Origin: a virus
Length of the DNA: 64,000 bases
IMG/VR virus record: IMGVR_UViG_3300035698_019443
Location: 40,265-104,264 of that record
Direction: 5' to 3' (one strand)
The notes beneath the pieces were generated by a model, which was not told the origin of the DNA, searched no databases, and saw only the letters and a list, made by a program, of their open reading frames with translations. Position numbers and translations under genes: made by a program. Position 1 is the stretch's first letter. Each line of letters starts with the position of its first letter. This document shows, piece by piece, positions 17,251-62,760 of this stretch.

Positions 17251-17263
17251 GCTTGCCCCCTCC

Positions 17264-17680
17264 TCATACCTTGTGTACGACGTTCTCGTCGATCCTGAAT
17301 GCCAGCCCACAGATCGTCTTCCCGATGGTCTGCGAGCAAGTGAGCGCCTCCTCGATGGTCACAACGACTGTTTGGACAACGGGTTCGCCATCGTGGGGGT
17401 GGGCAAAGGTCAGGGGCTCTCGACGGTCGACGTGGACCGTCTTCTTCCCCCCACTGATATTGAGTTTCTCGCCGCACCTCGGACAGCAGATCTCGATGTC
17501 GTAGGGTATCTGCCCCCCCGAGCGCTCGTGCAGGTCAGCGGCGAGCAGGTCGGCGTCGATCACGAGCCCGTCGATCTCCCCCCCACGGCAGAAAAGGTAG
17601 ACGGGCAGCCCATTGAATGTTGAGACCCCCCAACGTCCTCGCTGCCAGGCCTCCGCCGTCTTGCTATCTGGTTTCTTCAT
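17264..17680 (-). CDS. Zn-ribbon protein
   Basis: CPRC and C...C motifs. Confidence 0.55.
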   Translation of the reverse strand: MKKPDSKTAEAWQRGRWGVSTFNGLPVYLFCRGGEIDGLVIDADLLAADLHERSGGQIPYDIEICCPRCGEKLNISGGKKTVHVDRREPLTFAHPHDGEPVVQTVVVTIEEALTCSQTIGKTICGLAFRIDENVVHKV

Positions 17681-18083
17681 CGTGACTCAACTCCTCGAGC
17701 GCCGCCGCCCGTGCCTTGTTTAGCTCTTTCATCGCCGCTTCACCTTCAGGGTGGCGATCTGGATGGAAGTCGCGAGCGAGCTCGCGGTACGCCTGGTTGA
17801 CGCCCTCCTTCGTTGCGGTCTTGGGGTCAAGCCCTAGCAGCGTCCAGTGGTCACTCTGCTCCGCGACCTCCTCTGCTGTCTGATCCCAAGGGAGCTCCTC
17901 GTCCTCGTCGAAGAGGCCTTCGATACAGTCATCGCAGACGACTCGCTTCTTCGCGACGCTGAGCCAGGCATGGTTGGGTTGGGTGAACCTGCCACAGGCG
18001 GCACACCCGAAGGTCTGCTCGGCACCGCCGAGGACCGTCCCGAGCCCGCCGAGCAGTTGGTGGAGGAGGTCATCCATGGTCAT
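17664..18083 (-). CDS. J-domain co-chaperone with N-terminal Zn finger
   Basis: LLGL...AYRELARDFHPD...MKELNKA; CAAC/CDDC. Confidence 0.85.
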   Translation of the reverse strand: MTMDDLLHQLLGGLGTVLGGAEQTFGCAACGRFTQPNHAWLSVAKKRVVCDDCIEGLFDEDEELPWDQTAEEVAEQSDHWTLLGLDPKTATKEGVNQAYRELARDFHPDRHPEGEAAMKELNKARAAALEELSHDEETR

Positions 18084-18459: not shown

Positions 18460-18489
18460 AGAGTACGACGGAAGCTATGGCAGGGTCAA
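18460..18489 (-). promoter_or_regulatory. sigma70-like leaderless promoter
   Basis: TTGACC-N18-TACTCT-N6-ATG. Confidence 0.7.
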
Positions 18490-19667
18490 CGCCTTTTGAG
18501 GAAGGAGGAGCCGAGGACGAGGGCGCCGACGATGGGCACGCCGAGCACAATGCCCCAGGAGAGCTTCGAGCCAGACGCTCGTCGAGCTGCCGCCGCCGCT
18601 TTGATGGCGGCAATGTCCTCTCGGATCTGCGCGGTGGCGACACGCGACGCAGACGCTGCTCGCGCCCGAATGAGGTCCGACTCGAGCCCCATTAGCGTAC
18701 GCTCGGACTCGAAAGTACGAAGGAAACGAGCCTCCTCAGCCGGCTGTAACTCCGACCGCTGTATCCGTTGGTCCGCAACCATCGTCCGCAGCGTAGCGAG
18801 CGCCGCCATTCGAGTGAGCCCATTGCGAGCTGCCGTTATTGCTGCCCCATCAACCGTCTCGTTCTCGAGCGCTCGCGCACGCTCTGTGCGCTCCGACGAT
18901 TCGATGCCACGCTGTATCTGGCGCCTGTTGTGTTCGGCGCGGTTCGCCCCGTAGATCTTGACGCCAATGCCCACAAGAGCCGCAGCGGCAGCGGCAATCC
19001 CCGCTACAACCGAGGCCACGACACAGTAGTCAGGACCAGCCGCAACACCTTGGCTCATAATACGGTCGAGGGTCGCGTCGCGGAGAGCTCGAGTAAGCCC
19101 ACGATGCAACGCCTCATCGGGGTTTACTCCCCGTTGGATGTCCGCCTTGATACGCTCTTGGATATCGTAGGCATCCGAAGGCGTTCGCGTCATTGCATAC
19201 TCACGAAGCTCCGTCGAAGGGAAGACCTCCTTGAGCCTAAACGCTGCCTCTCTTTTGTCCCAGCCGATGGGGACTGGTGGGCGCAGGACCTGGAGGTACT
19301 CGTCGATCTTCGCCGCAGCCTCCTGGGGGCTCGCGGAGATCTGCTTGGCGCCTTCAATGACCCGACGTGCCTCCTGCGGCGCCCACTCCATGATCATCAT
19401 GTTGAAGATCTGTCGGCGCCGAGCGAGGAGAAACGAGATCGACGCGACCCGCGTAGCGTCCTCGGGCGTCTCCCCCTCTTCGACCCACTGCTGCGCCCGC
19501 TCTCGGACGTTCTGCTCGAGGCTCGGGTGGATCTCACTGAGAATGCGAGCGTACTCCGCCCCCCGCTGCCCTGCGGGCTTCTGCTGCGCGGCCTTCATCA
19601 TATTGCCGACGAAGTCGTGGGCAGTACGAGAGCTACGCCACGCCGCCTGGAAGACCGGGCGTGCCAT
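18486..19667 (-). CDS. Virion membrane protein with two TM segments
   Basis: Internal hydrophobic helix and C-terminal WGIVLGVPIVGALVLG...KRR. Confidence 0.65.
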   Translation of the reverse strand: MARPVFQAAWRSSRTAHDFVGNMMKAAQQKPAGQRGAEYARILSEIHPSLEQNVRERAQQWVEEGETPEDATRVASISFLLARRRQIFNMMIMEWAPQEARRVIEGAKQISASPQEAAAKIDEYLQVLRPPVPIGWDKREAAFRLKEVFPSTELREYAMTRTPSDAYDIQERIKADIQRGVNPDEALHRGLTRALRDATLDRIMSQGVAAGPDYCVVASVVAGIAAAAAALVGIGVKIYGANRAEHNRRQIQRGIESSERTERARALENETVDGAAITAARNGLTRMAALATLRTMVADQRIQRSELQPAEEARFLRTFESERTLMGLESDLIRARAASASRVATAQIREDIAAIKAAAAARRASGSKLSWGIVLGVPIVGALVLGSSFLKRR

Positions 19668-20228
19668 CTACTTGCGCCCCTTGAGGAAGTACCAACCTCC
19701 GCCCGCAACTGCCACGAGAATGACAGCGCCGACGACGTAGGTCCCCATCGAGGATGCGGGCGGGGGAGGTAGCGTTCGGTTGTTGTCCGCGGTGGGAGCT
19801 GGGTCGCCGTCGCGCAACGCCGCGAGCTCAGCGAGCGTCGTGTTCAGCGCCGCCTCGGACGCCTGTGCTGCTTGCGCGCCTGTCTCCATGAGCTGCTCGT
19901 GCTCGCGGATGTCCTCTTCCGACTGGGAGTCCCGAACGCTACTATAGATCTGGACGACAGCGTCGACTGCTCCCGCAGCAGCCCCAGTAATCGAGTCGAT
20001 GAGGTCAGTCACGGTCGAGCCCAGTCCGCTCATTCCGCTAGCCCGGCGAGAGATCGCCTCGGCGAGGGCGGTCTGCAAGGGCACGCCGGCAGAGGTTCTC
20101 TGTAGGACATAACGGTCCTGCCCGATCCGCCCCATGGCGTAATTGAGCGCTGCGGCCCGCACGTTCGGGGGCACGTTCGACTGGCGCAGTTTAGTGATGA
20201 GAGCCCTAGCTGCTTGTTGCGAGTTCAT
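19668..20228 (-). CDS. C-tail-anchored membrane protein
   Basis: Ends YVVGAVILVAVAGGGWYFLKGRK; contains GMSGLG. Confidence 0.7.
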   Translation of the reverse strand: MNSQQAARALITKLRQSNVPPNVRAAALNYAMGRIGQDRYVLQRTSAGVPLQTALAEAISRRASGMSGLGSTVTDLIDSITGAAAGAVDAVVQIYSSVRDSQSEEDIREHEQLMETGAQAAQASEAALNTTLAELAALRDGDPAPTADNNRTLPPPPASSMGTYVVGAVILVAVAGGGWYFLKGRK

Positions 20229-20790
20229 CGTCCTCTTCCTCCTCGGGTATCTCAGGGGCTGGCGGGGAACCCGACTCCCCCGGCATGGGTGGACGGTTCG
20301 GACGCCAACGGTCCCAACCGATCCAACCGAGAGCTCCGAGGGCGCCCAAGGCGACCACGGGTGGAGCCCACCGACGAAGTGTCAATGCGACCCCCGGCAC
20401 GTCGATCCCGAGCTCGCCTTGGATCTTTCCTTCGGAGCCGGCGAGGTATTCGAAGATCGACGAGAGCTGCCATGCCCCTCCGAGCGCGGCGGCAGGACTC
20501 GAGCACGCGGCGATCGCGGTCGAAGGCGGGAGTCCCGCATCGACGTCCGACAACCCTGGCTCGGCGCCAGACAGTAGACGAAGGTAATCGCGCAGTCCGT
20601 GCGCTGCCTCCTCCTCGAGCTTGGTGTTTCTCAACGCCCCTACTCGCTGGGCGAGCTCCTCGGGGCTATGACGTCGCGACCCTCGTCCGAGGATGGCGGC
20701 TTGGGTGAGAGCGCGAGCACGATGGTAGTCTGCCACTGCGCCCCGAAGTCTATCGTGGGCGACCGTAGCCTCTCGCAGAACGTCAGTCAT
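20206..20790 (-). CDS. Membrane protein with acidic tail
   Basis: TM VVALGALGALGWIGW near the C-terminus. Confidence 0.6.
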   Translation of the reverse strand: MTDVLREATVAHDRLRGAVADYHRARALTQAAILGRGSRRHSPEELAQRVGALRNTKLEEEAAHGLRDYLRLLSGAEPGLSDVDAGLPPSTAIAACSSPAAALGGAWQLSSIFEYLAGSEGKIQGELGIDVPGVALTLRRWAPPVVALGALGALGWIGWDRWRPNRPPMPGESGSPPAPEIPEEEEDDELATSS

Positions 20791-20795
20791 GTTGT

Positions 20796-21440
20796 CTATG
20801 ATACGCGATTTGCGAAAGAGATGTCATCCCAGAGGCTCTTGGGGATCCACCGCCCGTGAATTTGGTAGAAGGCGAACTGCCCGGTGTGAAACTCTATGGG
20901 AGTTCCGAGATGGGTCATTAGGAGCTCTACGGTATCACCTTCGTACGCGATGAGATGTACCGGCACGTCACCCCAGTTGTCCATAAGGTTACGGTTGCAG
21001 AGTGCCGAGCCTGACGCGATTGTGCCGTAGGAGTCCGTTTGCATATCCAGCGGGGATAGGCCTGCAATCTTGGTCCCCCACAGCAGGTAGGGGAGCAGCG
21101 CGTAGTCTCCGACACTATAGAGGCCAGTAGCCGTCTGCCCGAGTAGAAACGCGAACTGCACCTGTGAGATGTCGAGGACTAGCCCAGAAGGTACAGTGAA
21201 CTGCACCATGGACGTCACGACTCCAACTGCCTGGTTCTTGAAGGGAGCCACGCCTTCCCGTACATAGAAACTCGTCGCGTCCGGCGGTAGGGTGTCGTAC
21301 ATCCCCTGCGTGATTCGAACGAGCTGCGGGCCACGCTCTGGCTGAACGATCGTCCCTGAGCCAGGTTTACGCACCAGAGGCCGTTGGATCGACCTGATCG
21401 ACTTCTCTCTGAGCTTTCTCGTATCGTGTTTATTTGCCAC
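20796..21440 (-). CDS. Putative jelly-roll capsid/penton protein
   Basis: Beta-strand alternation, MVQFTVPSGLVLDI; third of three ~200-aa genes. Confidence 0.5.
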   Translation of the reverse strand: MANKHDTRKLREKSIRSIQRPLVRKPGSGTIVQPERGPQLVRITQGMYDTLPPDATSFYVREGVAPFKNQAVGVVTSMVQFTVPSGLVLDISQVQFAFLLGQTATGLYSVGDYALLPYLLWGTKIAGLSPLDMQTDSYGTIASGSALCNRNLMDNWGDVPVHLIAYEGDTVELLMTHLGTPIEFHTGQFAFYQIHGRWIPKSLWDDISFANRVS

Positions 21441-21451
21441 GATTGCTCCTT

Positions 21452-22102
21452 CTAGCTCTTCAAGACGTCAAGGCACTGCACGCCCACCATTTGAATGTAG
21501 AGCGTTCCATCGGTGCCCGGTGCGACCGAGGGCGTGACGTAGAATCGCGCCGTCGAGTTGGGGCCGAAGCCGTCGCCCTCTGGGCCGAGAATCCCGTCTT
21601 GGTCCTGTCGGTAGAGGATGTCCGAGGGGATCGCACGATCTTGCCGGTCCCGCTCGGCTCGCCCGTCGGAGTACTCCCAGAAGAAGTCGAGCACGTCGTC
21701 GACTGGCGATGCCGCGACCTCCTGCGAGCCCGCGATGTAAGGGTTGCCGCTCGAGATCGGGCGGAACCTGCCGCTGTTGGTACCGCTCGAGGGCACCCAC
21801 ACCATATGGAGGCGGTCGAGAAAGAACCAACCCTCCTCGGACACTGCCACGGCACCGCTCGCGCGCTCGGCAGAGCCCGAGGTCAGCGCAACGGAGACGC
21901 GGTAGGTAAAGGGGATGATCTTCGCGGCGTTGAGCTCCGTGTACCGGCGGAAAGAGAGCTGTCGGCCTTCGAGCGCGTCGAGCCGCGCGATGAGTTGGCT
22001 GGGATCACCAAACTCTTTGAGTCGCCCGTAGAGCTTGCGGAGCCCCACCGAGGTGTCCTCTTGCTTGTTTCGGAGTGCAGCGATCGCTTCGTTGATGTTC
22101 AC
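21452..22102 (-). CDS. Putative single jelly-roll capsid protein 2
   Basis: Short helical N-terminus then beta strands (PFTYRVSV...TLYIQMVG); strong AGGAGG SD. Confidence 0.55.
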   Translation of the reverse strand: MNINEAIAALRNKQEDTSVGLRKLYGRLKEFGDPSQLIARLDALEGRQLSFRRYTELNAAKIIPFTYRVSVALTSGSAERASGAVAVSEEGWFFLDRLHMVWVPSSGTNSGRFRPISSGNPYIAGSQEVAASPVDDVLDFFWEYSDGRAERDRQDRAIPSDILYRQDQDGILGPEGDGFGPNSTARFYVTPSVAPGTDGTLYIQMVGVQCLDVLKS

Positions 22103-22130
22103 GGTAATCTCCTCCTCTAATGAGGGTAAA

Positions 22131-22171
22131 GCCCCCGGCGAGGTCGACTTCGCGTGACACTCGGCGGGGGC
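22131..22171 (-). terminator. Imperfect GC hairpin after the putative MCP gene (partial terminator/attenuator)
   Basis: GCCCCC..CGAG...CTCG..GGGGGC followed by TTTA on the minus strand. Confidence 0.45.
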
Positions 22172-22211
22172 TCACCTGTCGTTGCAACAGTAAGCTATGT
22201 AGGTGTTCTCC

Positions 22212-22820
22212 CTACAGGACGTCGCGGACGTGCAGCCCATCGATCATGTAGCCGATGGAAACTTCGCCAGCGGTCAGCGCGGTGATGTCTGTGGCGAGGT
22301 CTGCAGAACCAAGCGCCGAGACACTCGCGTTGACCAAGAAGTTTTGCCTCGCCGGAATAGCTATACTTCTCGCCAACTTGCAGATACTTTCCTGGCTCGG
22401 TACCCCGTTATTAAAGTAAACGGTTGTGTCCGAACCGACGTCGCCGAAGAGACCACCACCTGCGGGCAAGTAGAAGGTCGGCGCCGTGAAGGCCTGCTTG
22501 TTTTGGATGACCAACTCCCAGAAGAGCTGAGCCATCGCGTGATGGTACATGATGTGGTCGTTCTGCGACGCGCCGACACAACCGCGGAAGTACAACCAAA
22601 CACGAAGGGCGAGCACTCGGTAGCTTTGGTCGGATGGGAACGCGCCTGCGCCCTCCATGTTTGTGAGAGCGACGGCGCCCGTGCTCGCAGCGGTGAACAG
22701 CCGGATGGGGCTGTTGGCGATGGTCGTTCGGGGGGTGAACCCGCCGGCGACGTTGCCTCGGATCAGAGTGTCCCAGAACGGCTGGTGTCGCCGTTCTTTC
22801 ATTCCACGTACTTTCGACAT
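22212..22820 (-). CDS. Putative major capsid protein (single jelly-roll)
   Basis: QPFWDT...RLF...TNM..AGAFP.DQSY.V...IPARQNF...IDG beta-sandwich pattern; follows the core-protein gene; paralog at 59204. Confidence 0.6.
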   Translation of the reverse strand: MSKVRGMKERRHQPFWDTLIRGNVAGGFTPRTTIANSPIRLFTAASTGAVALTNMEGAGAFPSDQSYRVLALRVWLYFRGCVGASQNDHIMYHHAMAQLFWELVIQNKQAFTAPTFYLPAGGGLFGDVGSDTTVYFNNGVPSQESICKLARSIAIPARQNFLVNASVSALGSADLATDITALTAGEVSIGYMIDGLHVRDVL

Positions 22821-22893
22821 CTCTTTGCTCCTCTCCTCGAAATCCTGTTTCTTTTCTGCGGGTGCGCTCCCACATCTTCCGAGGTGTTATTGC

Positions 22894-24570
22894 CTATCCA
22901 GAGAACACACTGCCGGCCAAGATGCCGGTCGATGCTGGGGAACCGTACTTGCCTGTGATCGGCTTGACGTAGCCAGGGGCTCCGTCAACCGGCCAGTTGC
23001 CCGCACTGCGCGGGTAGTCACCGGGTTGATTCGGCATGACAGTGACGCCGCCAGCGGGGGCGCCATTGAAGGCTTGATTGACCGCGGAGAGCACGGCAGC
23101 GCGAAGCTGCGGAGTGCCCTTGACCATGCCCATGCGGTTCTTGACTTCGCGGTAGGCGTGGATGGCGGCTTGTTTCGCGTTGGCGCCGGTGGCTGCCGCA
23201 GCGTTGGCGGCGTCAGCGATCGCCGCGTGGATCACTTCATTGCCCTGCGCGGCTTTGTCGCCGAGCACGCCGCCGTGAGTCTCGTTGCCGTAGAGCGAGC
23301 CGCCCTCATCAGCGAGACCCTCGTCCGCCGTGATATCGAAGCCTGCGACGGCTTCCTCGACTTCGAGGCCCATGCCGGGCTCTTCGATGTACTCGGCGAG
23401 ACCGTTGTCTACGCTGACGTCGAAGTCGGCGAGACCGTTGTCAATGCCGATATCGAGACCCATTCCAGGTGTCTCGATGTACTCGCCCATGCCTGGCTCT
23501 TCGATGTATTCACCGACGCCGGGCTCTTGGATGTACTCACCGATGCCATCGTCCGCCGCGAGTGCGCCGGCCATGCCACCGGAGAGAGCTCGCTCGTAGA
23601 CATCGAGGTTCGAGCCCATGCCGTAGCCTGCGAGGTCCTCGGCCAAGAGACCAACGGGCGGGGCGACATAGGCCTGGACGTTGGGCGGAGCGAACTGCGT
23701 GAGCAGAGTCTCGGCCAACGAGACAAGCGCGCCGACCATCGCTGCCTCGGAGTACTTGTCGAGGGGCTTGAGCGCGGCGACCTTCTTGGGAAGGTAGAAA
23801 GCAGCGAGCGCCACAGCGAGATTCGAGATGGCGGGGGCGTAGGGTCGCACCGACGCCGGAACCGCCTCGAGCTGCATGATCTGGTTGCCCGCCACGCGAC
23901 CGGCGAAGAAGCCTGCGCCACCAGCCAGGAAGGGAAGAACCATCGTCTTCAGCGTGGGCACGAGGCCCATGTTGCGACGATAGCTACGACGCTTCGTGGT
24001 CTTGCGCCGCTTGGACGCGGTGCTCTTGCGACCGGCGCGCTTCGAGAAGCGACCGTTCTTCAGACGCTTGCGGCTCGTGGCCTTGCGGCTCGTGCTCTTG
24101 CGGCGCTTGGAGGCGGCGACTTTGCGTTTCTTGACCCGACGTTTCTTTCCTTTGTTGCCCACCCAGACCCACTCGGCCTTCTCATGGACGGCGTCGCGGG
24201 GATACCAGCCAGCCCATTCGATCCCAGCAGTCTTGGCTGCCTTGGAGCGGGCTTTTCGATTGGTGAGCTTGGCTTTCGAGGGGCGCGTGCCGCCCTGGGC
24301 TCTTCGCTTCGGGGGGGTCTTCTTCGTGACCTTGGCACGCTTGGCCCTCTTGGCCTTTGCGAGATTGGCGGAACGCGTGGCGCGGCCTTTGGCGAGCGCG
24401 TCGAGGGTCGCCTGAGAGACCTTCTTCTTCTCTGGGTTGCGCTTGGCTTTCCTACGCACGGCCTTTTTTCGCTTCTTGGTCACTTTAGAGCCTCCTGCCT
24501 TTGCCTTTTTCGGCTTGCCTGGGTTCACCAGGGTGAGCAGGGTCGGGTTCTCTATCGCGTGGTATTTCAC
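22894..24570 (-). CDS. Putative core/DNA-condensing protein: K/R-rich N-terminus, hydrophobic middle, acidic Gly repeats
   Basis: ~200 aa dominated by K/R/A/S; three hydrophobic helices; G[IVML][GA]EY repeats. Confidence 0.7.
   Translation of the reverse strand: MKYHAIENPTLLTLVNPGKPKKAKAGGSKVTKKRKKAVRRKAKRNPEKKKVSQATLDALAKGRATRSANLAKAKRAKRAKVTKKTPPKRRAQGGTRPSKAKLTNRKARSKAAKTAGIEWAGWYPRDAVHEKAEWVWVGNKGKKRRVKKRKVAASKRRKSTSRKATSRKRLKNGRFSKRAGRKSTASKRRKTTKRRSYRRNMGLVPTLKTMVLPFLAGGAGFFAGRVAGNQIMQLEAVPASVRPYAPAISNLAVALAAFYLPKKVAALKPLDKYSEAAMVGALVSLAETLLTQFAPPNVQAYVAPPVGLLAEDLAGYGMGSNLDVYERALSGGMAGALAADDGIGEYIQEPGVGEYIEEPGMGEYIETPGMGLDIGIDNGLADFDVSVDNGLAEYIEEPGMGLEVEEAVAGFDITADEGLADEGGSLYGNETHGGVLGDKAAQGNEVIHAAIADAANAAAATGANAKQAAIHAYREVKNRMGMVKGTPQLRAAVLSAVNQAFNGAPAGGVTVMPNQPGDYPRSAGNWPVDGAPGYVKPITGKYGSPASTGILAGSVFSG
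23364..23547 (-). repeat. Tandem 9-11-codon repeats (PGMGEYIEE / DNGLA)
   Basis: GGCTCTTCGATGTACTC-like units; TCGGCGAGACCGTTGTC twice. Confidence 0.85.
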
Positions 24571-24618
24571 TTGCTCACCATGCTTTACAGCCTACGCGGG
24601 TCGCAGGCGGACTCTCAA
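24567..24618 (-). promoter_or_regulatory. Promoter plus leaderless 4-codon uORF (MVSK) coupled to the core gene
   Basis: TTGAGA-N18-TAGGCT-N7-ATG GTG AGC AAG TGA; the TGA overlaps the GTG start at 24570. Confidence 0.6.
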
Positions 24619-24667
24619 CTACGCGAAACCCCTAGTTAGTGGACGTCCCAATACTGTTTCGCGTCGT

Positions 24668-24696
24668 TTGACCGAGTTTGTCGTGGTTGGTAGACT
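24668..24696 (+). promoter_or_regulatory. sigma70-like leaderless promoter
   Basis: TTGACC-N17-TAGACT (TG extension)-N7-GTG. Confidence 0.75.
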
Positions 24697-24703
24697 GGTA
24701 AGT

Positions 24704-24988
24704 GTGAAGATACAGCCGAACCGCTACTACGCCGTCAAAGAGATCGCCGGCTACTTCGAGGTCGTCGACCAAACTATCGTCAATGCAATCAACCGCGGCC
24801 AACTCGTGGCGACGAAGTTAATGAATACGTGGCGGATAAAAGGCGAGTGGGTGTTGGCGTTCGAGAAGGAAGCAGTGGCGCACGCGAAGGCTATCCGCAA
24901 ATCCCTGCCGCCAATACGGACAGTCCCGACCCCGCGAAAAGTGCTACGATCCGGCGCCCGTCCCATGCAAAAAGGGCGTCTCCGTTAG
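24704..24988 (+). CDS. Excisionase-like HTH DNA-binding protein
   Basis: YAVKEIAGYFEVVDQTIVNAINRGQLVATKL..WRI. Confidence 0.85.
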   Translation: MKIQPNRYYAVKEIAGYFEVVDQTIVNAINRGQLVATKLMNTWRIKGEWVLAFEKEAVAHAKAIRKSLPPIRTVPTPRKVLRSGARPMQKGRLR

Positions 24989-25370
24989 GCGAGGAGCAGA
25001 GCAGCGTCCCCTTCTTTGGCGTTGACCGATAGAGCTGATCACCCACACGGATATCCGCCCCGAGGAAGTAGCCGAGCACAGCTGCGGAGTCGGGGTAGTG
25101 CTTGAGCGGTGACGATACCGTCTTCGCGCGGACGCCCTTCGTCGTACCGGCGGGCTCGAAGCACTTTACGCTCTTGCCATGGTCATGGAAGTATCGCTGA
25201 ATATCCCCGTTCTCGTGCCACTTGTCAGACCCGTAGTAGGTCGTCTCGGCGGACCCCACGAGCACCCACTTCGTCGGCCACTTCGCGTTGACGTCAATCT
25301 CCTTACGGATCTTCTTCTGGTGGAAGAGCTCCCACCGCTTGCGGGCGCCGGCGATGTCTCGACGTGCCAT
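24891..25370 (-). CDS. Hypothetical virion-cluster protein
   Basis: GAGG SD; last gene of the membrane-protein operon. Confidence 0.65.
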   Translation of the reverse strand: MARRDIAGARKRWELFHQKKIRKEIDVNAKWPTKWVLVGSAETTYYGSDKWHENGDIQRYFHDHGKSVKCFEPAGTTKGVRAKTVSSPLKHYPDSAAVLGYFLGADIRVGDQLYRSTPKKGTLLCSSPNGDALFAWDGRRIVALFAGSGLSVLAAGICG

Positions 25371-25373
25371 TGA

Positions 25374-25685
25374 TTACCTCTTCAGCAGAAGGAGAGCAGC
25401 GAGCGCCCCGATGGCGATCCACTCGAAGGGGACCGACGGGACACCCGAGCGGCAGATACAGCCCAATGCGGCCTCGCCCTTGCCGACCTTCCGCGCCAGG
25501 AGGGGCAGACGAGGGACGGCAGTGCCGATGGGGACGCCGATCTTCGCCGCGATAATTCGGGATGCGCGAGGAGCTCCGCCCGTCTGGTAGTAGTCGTAGC
25601 CGTCGCCCCGCCAAACGGAGCAGAGGCGCGCTACTTGCGGAGCCACAGGAATGCCGCCAAGGCCGCGGCGCCACCGATGATCCAT
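25374..25685 (-). CDS. C-tail-anchored membrane protein (start uncertain)
   Basis: Ends WIAIGALAALLLLKR. Confidence 0.55.
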   Translation of the reverse strand: MDHRWRRGLGGIPVAPQVARLCSVWRGDGYDYYQTGGAPRASRIIAAKIGVPIGTAVPRLPLLARKVGKGEAALGCICRSGVPSVPFEWIAIGALAALLLLKR

Positions 25686-25993
25686 GTTCTCTCTCCTGCG
25701 CTGCGATCGCCCCACCATCCGCTCAGCCCATCAACCGACCCGCCAGCGTTGAGCATCGGCGCGTTGCCGTACATCGTCGTGCCGGGGACCACTTTGTTGG
25801 TGAACGGCGCGAGCGACCCGGCGTCATCGGTCCACCGAGGGTCGAGCGCCCAGTGTGTCGCGAAGACACCATGTCGGTCTGCGGGTAGAATCGGCCCACC
25901 GAAGACGCCGCCACGGTAGGTAACTGGGGCGGGGATCTTCGCCACGCCAGTGCCGTGAACGGGACGCCGAACCTGAACGTATCGTCTGCTCAT
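25631..25993 (-). CDS. C-tail-anchored membrane protein
   Basis: ATGA overlap; ends WIIGGAAALAAFLWLRK. Confidence 0.7.
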   Translation of the reverse strand: MSRRYVQVRRPVHGTGVAKIPAPVTYRGGVFGGPILPADRHGVFATHWALDPRWTDDAGSLAPFTNKVVPGTTMYGNAPMLNAGGSVDGLSGWWGDRSAGERTWIIGGAAALAAFLWLRK

Positions 25994-26781
25994 TTGCTTG
26001 CCTTCTTTTTGAACAGGGTAGCGATGCGCCCCCCTGGCGTTCCGTATTTGACGTAGAGCGCGACCCCCGCGAGCACCGAGACCCCGCCAACGACGACCCA
26101 CGCCGGCACTCCGCCGCCCGCCTTGTCGTCGTCATCCTCGTCGCTGCTACCGCCGCCACCGTTGCCCGTGTTGGTTACTGGCGTGTGCCCGCCGTAGAGC
26201 GACTCTTCCATCGAGCCGCCATCTTCCGCCTCGAGCACACTGATGAGATCCGCAGTGATATCAGCTGACGAGTCTCCGGTCACAGACTCTGCCACTGCGC
26301 CTATTGGAGAGTACAAGAGAACATTCCGCACCAGCCTGCTGCTCAGGTCGGTGATGCGTGGATCATAGCGCGAGGCTGGCATCGCTCGCCATCGATCGGA
26401 GACTACGAGAGCTCGCCGCACAGCGACGTTCGCATCACGGACCAGTTGCTGCAAGACACGGACAGCAGCGACCGAGGGCTGTGGGGGTAGCGCAGAGATC
26501 TCTGCCTGCGTGGCCTGTACTCGTCTCGTGCGCGATCTTAGCTCTGCCATAATCGGGGAAGCCTCTTCCCCGCAGTCCTCATCAAATGAGTTCCACCACA
26601 ACGCCGCTGGCATATTCCAGGTGAACTGTCTCGCCAGCCACCCAGGACGGTCCCCATAGGTTTGTCGACCCTGCTCCGCCCGTTGCTCCAACGAAGCGAA
26701 GAGTGTCGCTACGTCATTCAGCCCCCCAGTAAGATGGAGCACTCGGGCTCGAAGAACCGTCGTTGTCAGTGCGATGGTCAT
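25990..26781 (-). CDS. C-tail-anchored membrane protein
   Basis: G/D linker, then WVVVGGVSVLAGVALYV, basic tail. Confidence 0.7.
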   Translation of the reverse strand: MTIALTTTVLRARVLHLTGGLNDVATLFASLEQRAEQGRQTYGDRPGWLARQFTWNMPAALWWNSFDEDCGEEASPIMAELRSRTRRVQATQAEISALPPQPSVAAVRVLQQLVRDANVAVRRALVVSDRWRAMPASRYDPRITDLSSRLVRNVLLYSPIGAVAESVTGDSSADITADLISVLEAEDGGSMEESLYGGHTPVTNTGNGGGGSSDEDDDDKAGGGVPAWVVVGGVSVLAGVALYVKYGTPGGRIATLFKKKASK

Positions 26782-26784
26782 CGT

Positions 26785-26973
26785 CTACTTCTCCCTCAGT
26801 AGCCAGATCGCCCCGCCGAGTACAACGACGGCGCCGACGACCCAGAAGGCAGCACGCACTGGCTCCACCGTCCCGAGCGCGGGGCGGGGGTAGCGGTAGA
26901 GTTGGTTGCGACCTCGAGGCATACGCGCGAAGCGCCCGCCGTAGGTCACTGGGGTTCGGGTCTGATACTTCAT
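26785..26973 (-). CDS. Small C-tail-anchored membrane protein
   Basis: GAGG SD; ends FWVVGAVVVLGGAIWLLREK. Confidence 0.65.
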   Translation of the reverse strand: MKYQTRTPVTYGGRFARMPRGRNQLYRYPRPALGTVEPVRAAFWVVGAVVVLGGAIWLLREK

Positions 26974-26980
26974 AGTGTCC

Positions 26981-27769
26981 TCACTTCGTCCAACGGTAGA
27001 TACCGTAGACGAGGGCGGCGAGGCCCGCGGCCCCAATGATGTAGACGTAGACGGGGCGCCCCTCGTTGTCGATCGACCCCGTTTCCATAATCGCTTCGAG
27101 CGATCCGACCATCGACGCAGCCTTCGCGAGGACGTCCTCGAGGTGCTGCCACGTCGCGTCCTGTACACCGGGCGGCTTGCCGGCGCCGAGAAAGACCATA
27201 GCGGTATAGATGCTGTCGGCTATTTTGTCCCGCAGTCCTTGATGTGTGGGTTGCATCTCGAGCACCTCGAGTTGCCAGTCCAAGACGTTGGCGAGGCTGC
27301 GAAGCGACGACTCCCCGCCAGCCCTTGGCGCCGCAGCGGACGACGTGAGCATTTTGAGCCCGCCGAGCTGCCCCCGCTCACTCAGCGTCCTCTCCGTCGA
27401 AACGAGCAGATCGCGTGCTTGCGAGAACGCCGTCCGAATAGTCACCATGAAAACGTCTCGACGAGCGAGCCACTGCTCCGCAACTGCCTCCTCTTGCCCA
27501 GCCCGCGGCACAAGATAGTCGGGACGGGGGAAGAGGATGGCGGCTTCGGGGAAGTCCTCTCCAACACTGTCGGAGAGACGTCGGACGGCCCAGAAGAGGC
27601 GAACGAAGGTTGAGCGGACGCGGCTCCAAGGATCGATCGTCTTCCCTGTGCCAAGTTGGGTCCAGGTGCTCCCCTCCTCGGCGCGATGAAGCGCCTGTTC
27701 GAGCGCCAGCCGTGCAGAGTCAAGCGTGTGCTTGCGATCGAGGTAGCCCTGTGCCGCCGCCGTCGTCAT
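26981..27769 (-). CDS. C-tail-anchored helical membrane protein
   Basis: Ends YIIGAAGLAALVYGIYRWTK. Confidence 0.7.
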   Translation of the reverse strand: MTTAAAQGYLDRKHTLDSARLALEQALHRAEEGSTWTQLGTGKTIDPWSRVRSTFVRLFWAVRRLSDSVGEDFPEAAILFPRPDYLVPRAGQEEAVAEQWLARRDVFMVTIRTAFSQARDLLVSTERTLSERGQLGGLKMLTSSAAAPRAGGESSLRSLANVLDWQLEVLEMQPTHQGLRDKIADSIYTAMVFLGAGKPPGVQDATWQHLEDVLAKAASMVGSLEAIMETGSIDNEGRPVYVYIIGAAGLAALVYGIYRWTK

Positions 27770-28857
27770 TTCGACTCCTTAGTCACGGAGTAGATGCCGT
27801 ATGCGGCAGCCGCCGCCCCACCAAGCCACATGAGCGGATGGTCCTCGATGGACTGCATGATCTTGTCCTGTAGCGTTGGCTCCTCGACGTCGGGCGTCTC
27901 ATCCTCGTCGAGCAGCGGCTCGTCGTCCGACAAGATCGGGTCTTCGTCAGGGAGCTCGTCTTCGTCGGGGAGCTCGTCTTCGTCGGGGAGCTCGTCTTCC
28001 GTGGGCTCGTCGCCATCCTCCGCGGCGAGGTCAATGACGAGGGACGTGTTCGTCGTCTTGCCGGTCTTCCTCGTGGTCTGCCCGCCGAAGATGTCTTGGT
28101 CCGTGCTCGTTCCACCGATCCGCCCCCCCTTGCCACTCGCCGTCTGGCCCGCCTCGATCTCGGTGAGCAAGGTCCGCCCTCCACGGGCGTAGTTACCGAG
28201 GTTGAAGTTGAATACACTTGCTGTCCACGCCGTCGGCTTCGGCCCCGCGAGCATGCGCTCGGCGGCTATGACTGCGATGCGGAACTGAGGGAGCAGCGTT
28301 GAGACGAGGCTCGAGTTGCCACTCTTCACAGCCGCCTCTATCCGCCCCTGCAACATGACCAGGCGACCCTTCACGAGATTGACCGCTGCGATCGTTGGGG
28401 CTGCCGAAGCAGCGACGAACGGGGCTTTCTTTGTACCGTGCTTGCCGAGGAACTGCTCTCTTGCGATCGCCATCGAAGCCGTGCCTGCGGTCCTCACGGT
28501 TCCCGCCCCAACGGCTGCTCCCTTAGCTCGCTGCTCGGCGAGGAAATCAAAGAGCTGGAAGTGCCGCAGCGGGATGAGGTAGGACCCACCCTGGCTGCCC
28601 GCCGGGAGCGACGGGGGGTAGTACTGCCCTGCGCCTTTGTACCCAAGGCGGTAGATATTTGCGAGCAGGCCAGCGTTCAGGTTCAGCCGGTTGAGCAGCG
28701 TCTTCGCGACGTCAGACACACGTCGCCCTGCCACGGTGTTCGGGGCCGCGGCTCTGATCGCCCCCAGGTCCGTCACGTTCTGGGCGTACTGCTCGGGGCG
28801 GTACACCGTAACCGCGATGTTGTTGATCATCCCCGTCTGGGGTGCGACTTGGCCCAT
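27766..28857 (-). CDS. C-tail-anchored protein with acidic repeat linker
   Basis: EDELPD repeats, then PLMWLGGAAAAAYGIY. Confidence 0.7.
   Translation of the reverse strand: MGQVAPQTGMINNIAVTVYRPEQYAQNVTDLGAIRAAAPNTVAGRRVSDVAKTLLNRLNLNAGLLANIYRLGYKGAGQYYPPSLPAGSQGGSYLIPLRHFQLFDFLAEQRAKGAAVGAGTVRTAGTASMAIAREQFLGKHGTKKAPFVAASAAPTIAAVNLVKGRLVMLQGRIEAAVKSGNSSLVSTLLPQFRIAVIAAERMLAGPKPTAWTASVFNFNLGNYARGGRTLLTEIEAGQTASGKGGRIGGTSTDQDIFGGQTTRKTGKTTNTSLVIDLAAEDGDEPTEDELPDEDELPDEDELPDEDPILSDDEPLLDEDETPDVEEPTLQDKIMQSIEDHPLMWLGGAAAAAYGIYSVTKESK
27941..27999. repeat. 18-bp tandem repeat x3 (EDELPD)
   Basis: TCTTCGTCRGGGAGCTCG x3. Confidence 0.9.
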
Positions 28858-28860
28858 GGT

Positions 28861-29781
28861 CTACTCTCCTTTTCCGCGGGACACGAGCCAACCGACGCCG
28901 ACTGCCGCGGCAGCCCACATGAGGGGGTTCGCTTGAATCGACGCCGTGATCTTCTCCATCAACGTCGGGGGCACGACGATCGGCGGCAGCACGATAATCG
29001 GCTCGGGGACGACGGGGGGCTCGGGGTAGACTTCTGGCGGGTCCAGCTGCGCCTCTTCCTCCTCGTCGAGTATCTGTTGCTCGGTGACCTTGGGGTCCTC
29101 GGCCTGGGCCGCGAGCTGCGCCGCGATCTTCGCCTCCTCTACTCGTTTGTCCGCCGCGGCCTTCGCCTCCGCGAGCTTGTCGGCTGCGGCCTTCGCCTCA
29201 GCGATCTTCGCCGCCGCTTCCCGATCTGCCTTGGCCTTCGCCGCGGCGCTCACCCGTGCCGCCGCGATATCTGTGGCAGCCTTCGCCGCGACTTGCGCCA
29301 CGTAGAGTTTCTCCTGCGCGTCCTTCGCCGCTGCCTCCTGTGCGAGCTTGGCGTCCTTCGCTGCGCTGATACGCGCTTGCAGCTCACGTTGTCGAGCGAG
29401 ATCCGCCGCAGCCTTCGCGTCTAGCGCCCGCTGTGCCACCGCGCTCTGCTCCATTAGAGTCTTCGCATGAAGCGCGGTCTGCTCCGCAGCCTTCGCCGTG
29501 GCCTCTTGCACCTCGGCGGCTTTCGCTGCGACGAGCGCCGCCTCTTTCGCGGCGAGGTCTGCCTTCGCTGCGATCGACGTCCGCACCGCGAGCTCCTGCG
29601 TCCGTGTCAACGAGGCCGCAGGGGCGAGCGGCGAGACGGGGACGTACTTCACTGCCTTCTCGGCGAGCGCCTCCTTCTGGACGGCGACGATCTTGGCGAC
29701 GACGAGCTCTCCCTTGACAGTGGCAATAGAGGGCACGATAGGCGCGACCGGCACAAAGGGCTTCGCGTAGTAGTTGATCAC
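28861..29781 (-). CDS. Ala/Lys/Glu coiled-coil protein with C-terminal anchor
   Basis: Long AAKA helix, Pro-rich linker, PLMWAAAAVGVGWLV. Confidence 0.7.
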   Translation of the reverse strand: MINYYAKPFVPVAPIVPSIATVKGELVVAKIVAVQKEALAEKAVKYVPVSPLAPAASLTRTQELAVRTSIAAKADLAAKEAALVAAKAAEVQEATAKAAEQTALHAKTLMEQSAVAQRALDAKAAADLARQRELQARISAAKDAKLAQEAAAKDAQEKLYVAQVAAKAATDIAAARVSAAAKAKADREAAAKIAEAKAAADKLAEAKAAADKRVEEAKIAAQLAAQAEDPKVTEQQILDEEEEAQLDPPEVYPEPPVVPEPIIVLPPIVVPPTLMEKITASIQANPLMWAAAAVGVGWLVSRGKGE

Positions 29782-30189
29782 AATTCCTCCCGAATGCCCT
29801 TCTGGCTCACGTAGATCAGCACGCCGCCGATGATGACCGCCGCGCCGGCGATGTAGGTGATCGGCTTACTCGTGATCGGGCCGGCGGGGTTGAGCCACGC
29901 GACGATGCCCGTCGGGGTCGGCGGATAGTCGGTGTTGCCGCCGCCACCACCCGTGATCTCCACCCCAGAGGCGACGATGTTCTCGAGCTGTGTAGTCGCG
30001 TCGCTGACGGCGACGATGAGGGCGTCCCACGTCGCGTCGACAATACCTGGCGTGCGCCCTGCGGCGAAGACCGCCGAGGCCTGCGCGAGGCTCGCCGCAG
30101 TCTGGTCAATGAGCGGACCATGCGTCGGTTGCTGCACGAGTACTGCTGTTTGGAGAGCGAGCCTCTGCGCCAACCCTCGGAGTTCACGA

Positions 30190-30197
<8 letters not shown>
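29778..30197 (-). CDS. C-tail-anchored membrane protein
   Basis: Ends YIAGAAVIIGGVLIYVSQK... Confidence 0.65.
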
Positions 30198-30753
<556 letters not shown>

Positions 30754-31257
30754 CTACTTTACCTTTCGGGCACGCCGCGCCATGGAAGCGGTGCGTGGCC
30801 CTGCGACTGGGTCGATGATTACTGGTTGTTTGTGCTGGTCGAGGGCGACTGCGAAGACGTGCGTGAAGGAGCCTTTCTCCTTGAATGCGACGCGGACGAT
30901 CTTGCACTGGATGCCGATGGTCCGCAGGGCAGCGACGAGGAAGACCGTCGCGTCGTCACAGTCGCCTACGAAGCGTCCAGTGCGTTGGATCGCCTCGATG
31001 ACCGCCTCGGGGTCGCGAACGAGCTCGACGTCCCTAGGGTCTGGGAGAAAGGTGTAGCGCCGATTGAACCAGTCGTAGACCGCTGCGATCTGCGAGAGCT
31101 TGTCGCGATCGCGCACATGCCGAACGATGTCCTCGACGAGGTTTCGTAGTCGAAGTGACTGCTCCCCACGCGGAGATTGCACGAGTTTCTCCATCTCGTC
31201 GACCGTTCTTTGTGTGCCCTGATACTGGACTGTTTTGTGCGGGGGAAGCTGAGCCAT
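30754..31257 (-). CDS. Transglutaminase-like cysteine protease
   Basis: GDCDD, THVF, IIDP (Cys-His-Asp triad); TACAAT 7 nt before ATG. Confidence 0.85.
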   Translation of the reverse strand: MAQLPPHKTVQYQGTQRTVDEMEKLVQSPRGEQSLRLRNLVEDIVRHVRDRDKLSQIAAVYDWFNRRYTFLPDPRDVELVRDPEAVIEAIQRTGRFVGDCDDATVFLVAALRTIGIQCKIVRVAFKEKGSFTHVFAVALDQHKQPVIIDPVAGPRTASMARRARKVK

Positions 31258-31270
31258 GAGTACGATTGTA

Positions 31271-31612
31271 CTACGAGAGAATACTAGTTGCGAGTGAGGC
31301 CCCGCCGAAGGTCCCGTGCCAGAAGATGCCGCCGTCACGGGCGGCTTCGTCCTCAACGAGCGAGGGACCGACGCCTGGATCGCCGCCGTTGTCCTCGAGC
31401 TCAAGCGAGGTGCCGATCTCGATGGGCGGAGCGAAAGCAGCCTGCGGCACTGCGACCTGCGTTGGCGCCGTCGAGGAGGCCAACGTCGCGAGGACCCCGA
31501 CCGTCAGTCCGATCACGGCGCCGTTCGTCGTGTCCTTCTTCAGGAGCTTCGCGCCAACCGCACCCGCAGCCCCGGCCAGTCCAATGTAATACAACGTGCT
31601 AGCTAAACTCAT
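31271..31612 (-). CDS. Two-TM membrane protein
   Basis: Two hydrophobic N-terminal helices. Confidence 0.6.
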   Translation of the reverse strand: MSLASTLYYIGLAGAAGAVGAKLLKKDTTNGAVIGLTVGVLATLASSTAPTQVAVPQAAFAPPIEIGTSLELEDNGGDPGVGPSLVEDEAARDGGIFWHGTFGGASLATSILS

Positions 31613-31630
31613 GCGTAGAACCTTTCCCTT

Positions 31631-32017
31631 CTATCCTCTTATTGGCGATTGCGTCGCGAACCACACACTCATTAGCTCTCGTTCTCTTGCGGCAAACTCT
31701 GCCGCCGTATACGCACCTTCGCTGCGGCTTCTCCCTGCTTCTTCCGCAAGAACCCGACGGCGTACCAAAGCTCGTTGTTCCTCCTCACCGGGGAGTAACG
31801 GTAGGACCATGACTCCGCCCGTGATCCCGCCGTTCGATGTGGGCGCCGTCGAAGGAGCACCGCCGCCGTCCATCGTGCGAGGCGTCGTGGGCCGCAAGAG
31901 GACAGACCCCCCACTAAGCACGGCTGCGAGCGCCTTCAGTTCCGGTTTCTTGGTGAGAAGCCCGACAAAGAGGTAGCTCGCTGCAGCTGCGAACCCTGCC
32001 TTGAGTACTTGGCTCAT
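31631..32017 (-). CDS. Membrane protein
   Basis: ATGA overlap; hydrophobic N-terminus. Confidence 0.55.
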   Translation of the reverse strand: MSQVLKAGFAAAASYLFVGLLTKKPELKALAAVLSGGSVLLRPTTPRTMDGGGAPSTAPTSNGGITGGVMVLPLLPGEEEQRALVRRRVLAEEAGRSRSEGAYTAAEFAARERELMSVWFATQSPIRG

Positions 32018-32175
32018 GCTCTTACTCCTGGTACGAGCCCCGAGGTGAGAGCGAGGAGCCCGAGAGCTCCAATCCCTGCGCCTGCGATCGGACTCTGCTC
32101 GATTGTGTGTGCGAGAACCGCCCCTGCGCCAGCGGCGGCAAGGAGCAACCAGAAAGATCCGCTCGTTGGACTCAT
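32014..32175 (-). CDS. Small two-TM protein
   Basis: 53 aa; ATGA overlaps on both sides. Confidence 0.55.
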   Translation of the reverse strand: MSPTSGSFWLLLAAAGAGAVLAHTIEQSPIAGAGIGALGLLALTSGLVPGVRA

Positions 32176-32462
32176 ATTGACTCCTTCGCCCCAACGCTCG
32201 CCCGGTACGCTGCCATCGTGGCTTGGCTCTCTTCCCACGACGCGGGGGGCGGCGTCTGCGGTAGCCAGCTCGTCATAGCTGCGATCTCGGCGTCCTGCTC
32301 GGCGGGCGTTCGCAGACTGAACGCGAGTTGTCCAAGGCCCGCCGCAGCCCCAACGCCATACTGCACCATTTGATTATCGGTGAACTTTCCCACGAGCCAC
32401 CAAGTCGAGTGCCCCGTGAAATACGCGAGGAGCAGCTTGAGCGGGAGGTCCAGACTACTCAT
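32172..32462 (-). CDS. Small two-TM protein
   Basis: MSSLDLPLKLLLAYF...; ATGA overlaps. Confidence 0.55.
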   Translation of the reverse strand: MSSLDLPLKLLLAYFTGHSTWWLVGKFTDNQMVQYGVGAAAGLGQLAFSLRTPAEQDAEIAAMTSWLPQTPPPASWEESQATMAAYRASVGAKESI

Positions 32463-32854
32463 ATCGTGTCCCCGTTGTCCCCGCCGTCGTCGTTGATCAG
32501 GGAGAGGGCGATGGCAGCGGCGTCGTCGACGGCGTCCCCAACGGCGCCCGTCGCTTTGTCGACGAGGGTGTTGGCGACGACCGCGGCGCTCTGGTCGACG
32601 GCGTACTTCGCGCCGATGCCCAGGAGAGCTCCGACGATCGCTCCGGTGACAGCGCTTCGCCCTGTGATGAACGCGAGGAGCCCTGTCGCGCCGGCGCCGA
32701 TGCCAGCCCACTTCGCCGACTCCGCGTAGTTTGGTGGAGTGTCCAGCCCGAGGGGGTAGCGGACGACAGCATAGTCAATGGGGGCGACTCGCCCGTTGCG
32801 AGAAACCTGTACGCGTTGGTTGTTTGTGCCGTAGGGGTAACGGGGAGTTCTCAT
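32459..32854 (-). CDS. Two-TM protein, first gene of the membrane operon
   Basis: TATCCT 6 nt before ATG; Gly-zipper helices. Confidence 0.65.
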   Translation of the reverse strand: MRTPRYPYGTNNQRVQVSRNGRVAPIDYAVVRYPLGLDTPPNYAESAKWAGIGAGATGLLAFITGRSAVTGAIVGALLGIGAKYAVDQSAAVVANTLVDKATGAVGDAVDDAAAIALSLINDDGGDNGDTI

Positions 32855-35071: not shown

Positions 35072-35626
35072 TCAGGGCCATTGTTTGCCGCCGATCAGAT
35101 CGTAGAACCGGCGGGCGTTCTTTGTCGATTTGTGAGCTCTCGCCCACTCTTCCGTCATACACTGTGAGGACCCGTAGCTCCCCAGCCATCGCCAGGTCGA
35201 CCCACCGCAGCGATCTCTCGAGTAGGCAAGGAACGCCGCCCCGGTATAGATCTGGCACTCCGCTCCCTCAAGCGCCTTCGTGCAGTACCCTGGGCGGAAG
35301 TTCAGGGCGACCCCGTGCGTCTGCATGAGACCGATCTCGAAGCGCGGCTCTGGGCCAACGGCGAACTCGTCGAGGTTCGACTCACGCTTGGCAATCGCAA
35401 CGAGCAGGAGAGGGTCGAGGTGGTTCTCTTCCCCCGCCAAGTTGAAGAGCTTCGCGAGCCGAAGCGCTTCTACATCGCCGTGCGCTGGTTGGAGTGTTTG
35501 GATCGCCGCGGCGGTCTCGGCGGCGTCTTCGTCGCCATCCCCGTAAGCTCGTAGCGCCGTCAGGAGAATAGCAACGAAGAGCACCGCCATGACCAAAAGG
35601 GTGTCGCGTGTGTCAGGTGATATCAT
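35072..35626 (-). CDS. Lytic transglycosylase (SLT) with N-terminal anchor
   Basis: LDPLLLVAIAKRES, IGLMQ, GAAFL, SY. Confidence 0.88.
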   Translation of the reverse strand: MISPDTRDTLLVMAVLFVAILLTALRAYGDGDEDAAETAAAIQTLQPAHGDVEALRLAKLFNLAGEENHLDPLLLVAIAKRESNLDEFAVGPEPRFEIGLMQTHGVALNFRPGYCTKALEGAECQIYTGAAFLAYSRDRCGGSTWRWLGSYGSSQCMTEEWARAHKSTKNARRFYDLIGGKQWP

Positions 35627-62569: not shown

Positions 62570-62760
62570 TGCGACTCATGCAAGAGCGACGAGCGCGGAC
62601 AGCGGGGCGTGAGGTGCGCCAAGCCAAAGAGGCCGTGCAATTCGTCGATGAGTTCCTGCGGAATATCGACTGCGAGGCGGAGGCAAGGTCCGCCATCTGG
62701 GAGGAGTTCAACACTGAGGTAACGCATAGAAACAAGCTCAAGATGGCAGGGAAGCTATAG
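62569..62760 (+). CDS. Hypothetical protein
   Basis: TGATG coupling. Confidence 0.45.
   Translation: MRLMQERRARTAGREVRQAKEAVQFVDEFLRNIDCEAEARSAIWEEFNTEVTHRNKLKMAGKL

Follow-up and report, generated by a model that had tools for sequence, protein, structure and literature searches.

A putative virion-assembly module with paired single jelly-roll proteins in the 104-kb genome of a candidate tailless, membrane-containing virus

The IMG/VR virus record IMGVR_UViG_3300035698_019443 comprises 104,264 bp, and its bases 40265-104264, a stretch of 64,000 nucleotides referred to here as the window, contain a block of genes for two predicted jelly-roll proteins (A and B), a very basic protein and numerous membrane proteins. 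We interpret this block, with a probability of roughly 0.6, as the virion-assembly module of a bacterial virus that would be tailless and icosahedral, with an internal membrane and a double-stranded DNA genome condensed by protein. An earlier examination of the window from its letters and open reading frames (ORFs), called here the sequence-only reading, had proposed a large virus of this general type, and every ORF that it named was recovered on the minus strand where it had been placed. The record ends in a 127-bp direct repeat and the element assembles as a circle; because of this terminal repeat the genome is probably complete and circularly permuted. Its G+C content is 63%, and a single long array of minus-strand genes occupies the window between about 42.5 kb and about 5 kb. 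The genome had been described as larger than 64 kb, which is right as to its being large; the actual size is 104 kb, and complete relatives measure 86-171 kb. Copies of the stretch with at least 99% identity occur in contigs from four salt-lake metagenome runs, and no RNA runs containing it were listed.

Protein A has 99 unnamed homologues, which share 40-91% identity with it and lie on contigs as long as 179 kb. Among related genomes its identity is 42-62%, compared with 25-35% or no detectable similarity for the neighbouring genes. No other gene of the lineage is as well conserved, as would be expected of a major capsid protein, and A is a candidate for that role. Its AlphaFold model, built from a 46-sequence alignment, is mostly beta (predicted local distance difference test score [pLDDT] 81; predicted template modelling score 0.77), and its top Foldseek matches are the capsid protein of Sulfolobus polyhedral virus 1 (SPV1; 6oj0_A, probability 1.00) followed by SH1 capsid chains. 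For protein B, a profile made from syntenic homologues found 273 representatives among 1.84 billion proteins. The AlphaFold 2 (AF2) model of B (76 sequences, pLDDT 92) has coiled-coil-like helices at residues 3-58 and a jelly roll at residues 60-216; Foldseek placed SPV1 6oj0_A first (E 3.5e-4) and SH1 6qt9_g second (E 1.4e-3), and the best named match in BFVD was SPV1 VP4 (E 1.4e-4). An exhaustive VIA-wide structure search with B gave scores of 9.3 for the PBCV-1 capsid protein, 8.4 for SPV1, 8.4 for the major capsid protein of EhV, 8.0 for a poxvirus D13-like protein, 7.8 for the major capsid protein of Faustovirus, 7.5 for ASFV p72, 7.3 for HCIV-1, 6.9 for HHIV-2, 6.8 for P23-77 VP17 and 6.2 for PRD1 P3. 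Judged by these models, A and B are jelly rolls, and the solved structures nearest to them belong to lattice proteins of icosahedral viruses that contain a membrane. The Foldseek comparison that had been suggested for the predicted folds thus came out in favour of the proposal, the best solved matches being capsid proteins of membrane-containing tailless viruses.

Sequence comparison was silent on these proteins. Neither A nor B matched Pfam or PHROGs at E <= 0.01, the VP16/VP17 and VP4/VP7 families included, and profiles of A, B and the adjoining protein C found no capsid protein or other relevant match among PDB sequences; the PDB matches of the B profile were coiled coils only, aligned to its N-terminal helix. 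A tblastn search of A and B against 50,697 GenBank phage records returned no matches. The profiles of A, B and C showed no similarity to one another, and any common origin of the three would be visible only in the fold.

Three jelly-roll capsid genes had been claimed for this block, of which A and B are borne out by the models. The third conserved jelly roll of the lineage is instead A', a divergent paralogue of A that lies amid the replication genes and is similar to A in sequence (BLASTP E 3e-6; the A profile matches A' from end to end with E 4.9e-11). A similar second copy of A is present in two complete relatives (G1 and G3). Because SPV1 has separate hexamer and penton proteins, A' is by analogy a candidate penton protein. 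Protein C, the gene originally counted as third, is specific to a clade: a word search found 3 homologues, and local profile matches occur in 4 of 22 related loci, invariably right after B and in the closest sub-clade only. The ESM Atlas model of C is weak (pLDDT 0.52), and its leads are of jelly-roll type only or otherwise unnamed viral clusters.

The 22 related loci come from scans of IMG/VR and of GTDB genomes. In all but one of the 22, B follows downstream of A on the same strand, usually adjoining it, and the exception is a locus that ends just after A. Of the 15 IMG/VR loci compared, 14 have a homologue of the basic protein immediately before A, and a 159-aa anchored protein, a membrane protein (protein D) and a transglutaminase-like enzyme recur in the same order. 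The contigs of the relatives are 75-171 kb long, with terminal repeats; five are complete by CheckV estimate (86-171 kb), four of these with terminal repeats. The lineage is real and widespread, and it is undescribed in the GenBank phage records and the literature searched, where no description of it was found.

The arrangement of A, B and A' bears on a first alternative, that the virion has some other architecture (enveloped, pleomorphic or built from an unrecognised shell protein) and that A and B are surface glycan-binding, spike or chaperone proteins. Lectin-like and chaperone-like proteins do appear among the structural matches of A and B, but they rank below the lattice-forming capsid proteins, and both the strict order of A then B and the presence of A' in three complete genomes fit a set of hexamer and penton proteins. 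We regard this alternative as unlikely.

The genes around the putative capsid pair are listed in Table 1. A basic core protein ahead of the capsid genes had been noted, and the 558-aa product found there is indeed very basic in residues 1-200 (76 lysines and arginines against 7 aspartates and glutamates); residues 201-310 are hydrophobic, and residues 311-430 hold 30 acidic residues against 1 basic residue, with repeats of the type GEYIEEPGMG. As a single sequence it matched nothing in Pfam, PHROGs or the PDB, and it is a candidate membrane-anchored, genome-condensing protein. Upstream of it, the 159-aa protein has homologues in 8 related loci, and protein D has homologues downstream of B in 7. 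The seven anchored, mostly helical proteins at 25374..30753 showed no family matches and are predicted to be virion-membrane proteins. By a strict hydropathy rule, 12 of the 26 ORFs of the block have a membrane-like segment, and a count by eye that adds weaker Ala/Gly-rich C-terminal segments gives about 14-15. The figure of more than 15 membrane proteins proposed earlier was thus slightly too high, but the enrichment holds: C-terminal anchors number 7 among the 26 block ORFs against 3 among 107 ORFs elsewhere (Fisher p = 4e-4). The cysteine enzyme that had been suspected in the block is the transglutaminase-like protein, a candidate maturation enzyme that is kept throughout the lineage, with homologues in 9 of 15 loci and in the complete genomes G1 and G5.

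Table 1. Positions, in window coordinates, of the putative capsid genes and of other features discussed in the text.
Feature	Position	Strand	Basis and remarks
Protein A, 202 aa	22212..22820	-	single jelly roll; candidate major capsid protein; most conserved gene of the lineage
Protein B, 216 aa	21452..22102	-	N-terminal helices and single jelly roll; candidate second capsid protein
G+C-rich stem-loop	22103..22211	-	directly after the A stop codon, followed by the B ribosome-binding site
Protein C, 214 aa	20796..21440	-	beta-rich look by sequence; candidate vertex or minor capsid protein
A', 179 aa	59204..59743	+	divergent A paralogue amid replication genes; candidate penton protein
Three-part protein, 558 aa	22894..24570	-	basic arm, hydrophobic helices, acidic repeats
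159-aa protein with C-terminal membrane anchor	24891..25370	-	C-terminal hydrophobic segment; conserved
Seven mostly helical proteins with C-terminal hydrophobic anchors	25374..30753	-	hydropathy
Three further membrane proteins, including conserved protein D (20206-20790)	18486..20790	-	hydropathy
Transglutaminase-like cysteine protease or transglutaminase	30754..31404	-	Transglut_core PF01841, E 2.9e-7
Fibre or spike, 1250 aa	9541..13293	-	'DPMTTRGD(L/I)I(I/V)RDA(A/S)N' units; beta-helix-like repeats
Lytic transglycosylase	35072..35626	-	PF01464 SLT, E 7.7e-9; N-terminal transmembrane segment, residues 9-27
Two glycosyltransferases	14630-15580, 15565-17310	-	PF10111, PF02709, PF13692; downstream of capsid genes
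138-aa ORF	17264-17680	-	without family match
J-domain protein	17664-18083	-	DnaJ PF00226, E 7e-9; conserved in G1 and G5

A search for tailed-phage hallmark genes across the genome covered nearly all ORFs of at least 250 aa, which were scanned against one or both of Pfam and PHROGs; the exceptions are a small number of ORFs of roughly 265 aa, including one predicted membrane protein. No match to a terminase, portal, HK97 capsid, tail tube, sheath or tape measure was obtained anywhere in the 104 kb, so that the absence reported earlier for the 64-kb window holds there and extends to the whole genome. The remaining 40 kb had been set beforehand as the ground on which the proposal could fail, and no HK97 capsid, terminase or portal was found in them. 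Six-frame scans with Terminase_6N (PF03237) in this genome and with TerL_ATPase (PF03354) in the five complete relatives were likewise empty, while the control genomes responded. No scanned ORF had a Pfam or PHROGs match to an FtsK-type packaging ATPase, a result of sequence methods only. Canonical Walker A motifs in the genome are confined to an SMC-like ATPase beside PolA and the Sak4-like protein, and a third pattern match falls within the DUF669 SSB-like protein. The complete 86-kb relative G3 has a canonical Walker A motif in no ORF of at least 100 aa. No hallmark of a head or tail turned up among ten of its largest ORFs, which yielded an integrase, an endolysin, a spike-like protein and a transposase. 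A packaging role was weighed for an AAA_25 ATPase (43231-44412) and dismissed, its matches being to primase-helicase families; as a single sequence this ATPase had no relevant match in the PDB.

These scans bear on a second alternative, a highly divergent tailed phage (Caudoviricetes) in which the HK97 capsid, portal and terminase lie beyond the reach of Pfam and PHROGs and in which A and B are decoration, cement or fibre domains. The large terminase is normally the easiest phage gene to detect, yet neither this genome nor five complete relatives yielded it; the complete relative G3 lacks any canonical Walker A motif, and matches to a portal, tube, sheath or tape measure occurred nowhere. The conservation of A is far above what is usual for a decoration protein, and the dense array of tail-anchored membrane proteins together with a membrane-anchored basic protein is without counterpart in the head modules of tailed phages. 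A divergent tailed phage is, on this evidence, quite improbable. That the element is no virus but a large plasmid or mobile element with non-virion jelly-roll proteins would fit its assembly as a circle with a 127-bp terminal repeat, the binning of relatives into metagenome-assembled genomes (MAGs) and the recombinases encoded, but it encodes an amidase of endolysin type, an SLT enzyme, a fibre whose repeats are of the phage-spike kind and a Bro-N protein, genes for conjugation or partition were not seen in the scans, and the contigs of the relatives cluster at 75-171 kb with terminal repeats, which makes this explanation very improbable.

Several points count against the interpretation of the block as an assembly module of a tailless, membrane-containing virus. 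Virions have yet to be observed, and the whole interpretation depends on predicted structures; a link of A or B to any known capsid family was not found at the sequence level; and only sequence methods stand behind the failure to detect a packaging ATPase. Among the matches of the 1250-aa protein are 'tail spike' families, though tailless viruses also carry spikes. In addition, large proteins of 1161, 664, 488 and 406 aa have no assignment at all, and a divergent capsid or portal could be hidden among them; in the ESM Atlas the 664-aa protein retrieved unnamed viral clusters only.

If the assembly-module interpretation is right, the basic N-terminal arm of the 558-aa protein would condense the circular-mapping 104-kb genome, and the hydrophobic middle of the same protein would tether the resulting nucleoprotein to a lipid vesicle populated by about a dozen tail-anchored viral proteins. 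A and B would assemble on this membrane as an outer lattice of pseudo-hexameric capsomers, with the fivefold vertices filled by A' or, in this sub-clade, by C, and the transglutaminase-like cysteine enzyme would process or cross-link virion proteins. Because no packaging motor was found, the genome would probably be enclosed by co-assembly, as proposed for SPV1, and not pumped into a preformed shell. The 1250-aa fibre would bind the host and the membrane-anchored SLT transglycosylase would open the peptidoglycan at entry, while replication would be autonomous, with a phage-type PolA, a helicase, Sak4 and SSB.

The closest known counterpart of this arrangement is SPV1 of the Portogloboviridae, which has jelly-roll hexamer and penton proteins, a layer of lipid on the inside and a core of nucleoprotein, and in which a packaging ATPase is absent (PMC8459092, PMC8812541). 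Its genome is condensed by a nucleocapsid protein, and it encodes glycosyltransferases and small guide-RNA arrays (PMC8459092, PMC8812541). Among solved structures SPV1 VP4 matches A best and ranks near the top for B; both viruses would build their lattice from jelly-roll proteins (here A and B with the second copy A'), both encode glycosyltransferases, and in neither is there a packaging ATPase, as far as sequence methods tell for the present genome. The nucleoprotein core inside the lipid layer of SPV1 has its possible equivalent in the basic, membrane-anchored protein beside the capsid genes. The differences are considerable: SPV1 has a 20-kb genome without replication genes, in contrast to 104 kb (75-171 kb in the relatives) with a PolA-type set; its host is a hyperthermophilic archaeon (Sulfolobales), whereas the signs here are bacterial; there is no sequence similarity, B has an extra N-terminal coiled coil, and the basic protein is membrane-anchored with an acidic tail. 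The architecture therefore resembles that of SPV1 in a genome about five times larger that has its own replication genes.

The sequence-only reading had drawn its comparison with SH1/P23-77-like viruses, but SPV1 VP4 is the closer structure. In Helvetiavirae, two single jelly-roll major capsid proteins are encoded side by side within a conserved ATPase-MCP-MCP gene block (MCP, major capsid protein). The side-by-side pair is found here as well, as judged from the models, but the structural scores of the Halopanivirales (P23-77, SH1, HHIV-2, HCIV-1) are below that of SPV1 and there is no match to their Pfam families. Helvetiavirae (Sphaerolipoviridae, Simuloviridae, Matshushitaviridae) have genomes of 16-31 kb, in contrast to 104,264 bp, and possess a packaging ATPase (PMC12643093, PMC12642351, PMC8812541). 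Because sequence methods revealed an FtsK/A32-type packaging ATPase neither beside the capsid genes nor elsewhere, the element is not a member of the SH1/P23-77-like group. It falls outside both Portogloboviridae and Helvetiavirae in sequence, genome size and host, and outside the latter also in the ATPase. The prokaryotic double jelly-roll viruses (PRD1 and other Tectiviridae, PM2, FLiP, Autolykiviridae) differ in having one fused double jelly-roll protein where separate single-barrel genes are found here, and in genomes below about 20 kb, mostly with an FtsK-type ATPase; besides SPV1, FLiP has no packaging ATPase (PMC8812541). The replication arm had been called caudovirus-like, and rightly so, since PolA with an intein, SNF2, an AAA_24 (Sak4-like) protein, a DUF669 (SSB-like) protein and a PD-(D/E)XK nuclease were all found; it shares its gene set and PHROGs matches with tailed-phage replication modules (PolA, SNF2, Sak4, SSB and Cas4-like nuclease), but here it is joined to a non-HK97 structural module.

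Taken more broadly, the relatives may constitute a widespread, undescribed bacterial double-stranded DNA virus lineage of high rank, with genomes of 75-171 kb, an SPV1-like shell around a membrane-wrapped, protein-condensed genome, and no packaging motor. This wider proposal is tentative and, taken in all its parts, falls short of even odds. If it is true, the lineage would be the first bacterial counterpart of the archaeal portogloboviruses, and SPV1, an isolated archaeal oddity at the base of the two-barrel viruses, would gain a large bacterial sister group. Known prokaryotic jelly-roll viruses with an internal membrane are small, with genomes below about 20 kb in the double jelly-roll group and of 16-31 kb in the two-barrel group (PMC8812541, PMC12643093, PMC12642351). 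With genomes of 75-171 kb and autonomous replication, a bacterial lineage of this kind would exceed that size limit and would hold by far the largest known genomes of prokaryotic viruses with a jelly-roll capsid, and a genome of about 100 kb may then be enclosed without a packaging ATPase. To our knowledge, large genomes among such jelly-roll viruses are otherwise found only in eukaryotic relatives. Automatic pipelines probably class contigs of this kind as tailed phages, and the A-B pair offers a convenient marker by which to find them.

Several members of the B family (P0157, P0159, P0169, P0172 and P0174, of 334-364 aa, and P0250, of 454 aa) consist of two B-type barrels in tandem, each terminating in a common G.L...L.GY.I motif. 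They are natural fusions from a single to a double jelly roll and, if the wider proposal is true, would offer a present-day case of how single barrels join to form a double one; scans of viral and metagenome contigs yielded no loci that encode them. On a Gemmatimonadota MAG contig, five divergent B-like ORFs stand in tandem downstream of an A homologue (L023:8865-13369), a local expansion of jelly-roll genes. The stem-loop that follows A in the present genome is unusually stable by RNA folding (-51.8 kcal/mol, z = -4.06, with 0 of 200 shuffles equally stable), and we infer that it acts as an attenuator or transcript stabiliser. A scan of the block for promoter and terminator consensus sequences gave results not above chance.

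Downstream of the capsid genes, the 1250-aa fibre has PHROGs matches to a virion structural protein (1e-35) and a tail spike (4e-17) and is a candidate receptor-binding protein. Just downstream of its gene lie two paralogous proteins of 406 aa (6544-7764) and 488 aa (8075-9541) with near-identical N-termini, in a stretch with a G+C content of 0.57 compared with 0.63; these may be exchangeable host-range modules. The J-domain protein may recruit host Hsp70 during assembly. A GDSL esterase is also encoded. An acidic protein of 1161 aa (38998-42483), with repeated helical units, a W..(H/Y)P...EEEI-like motif and a Cys-rich C-terminus, had no family match and could be a scaffold or size-determining protein. 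A 628-aa ORF across the start of the window was considered as a structural protein and set aside, since it contains a CxxxCxxC motif and has the look of a radical-SAM enzyme.

The genome encodes an Amidase_2 endolysin, and this enzyme, the SLT transglycosylase and a transfer-messenger RNA (tmRNA) gene together indicate a bacterial host. The full-length tmRNA gene lies outside the window at genome positions 15847-16212 (Rfam RF00023, 135 bits), has the tag peptide ANTDNYGELAQAA and may be a clue to the host. A haloarchaeal host, which the salt-lake source would suggest, was rejected because most ORFs are roughly balanced in acidic and basic residues and because the tmRNA and peptidoglycan hydrolases are present. 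Relatives were binned in MAGs of Gemmatimonadota (three), Pirellulales (two), Ignavibacteriaceae and Kiloniellales, which is weak evidence of host. Some members of the lineage may be temperate, because G3 encodes a tyrosine integrase (L031:4781-5977) and a transposase.

The two ends of the record each carry part of the PolA gene (window 62760-64000, continued at genome 18-2567), and the intein of this gene contains a LAGLIDADG homing endonuclease; the SNF2 helicase (window 54843-57662) shows a LAGLIDADG match too, though a faint one. Modification-type enzymes form a cluster (L002:1283-2934, L001:5970-10219, L003:518-2404) that includes two PAPS-reductase-like proteins and radical-SAM proteins together with a methyltransferase, a sulfotransferase and a glycosyltransferase, and they may act on DNA or glycans.

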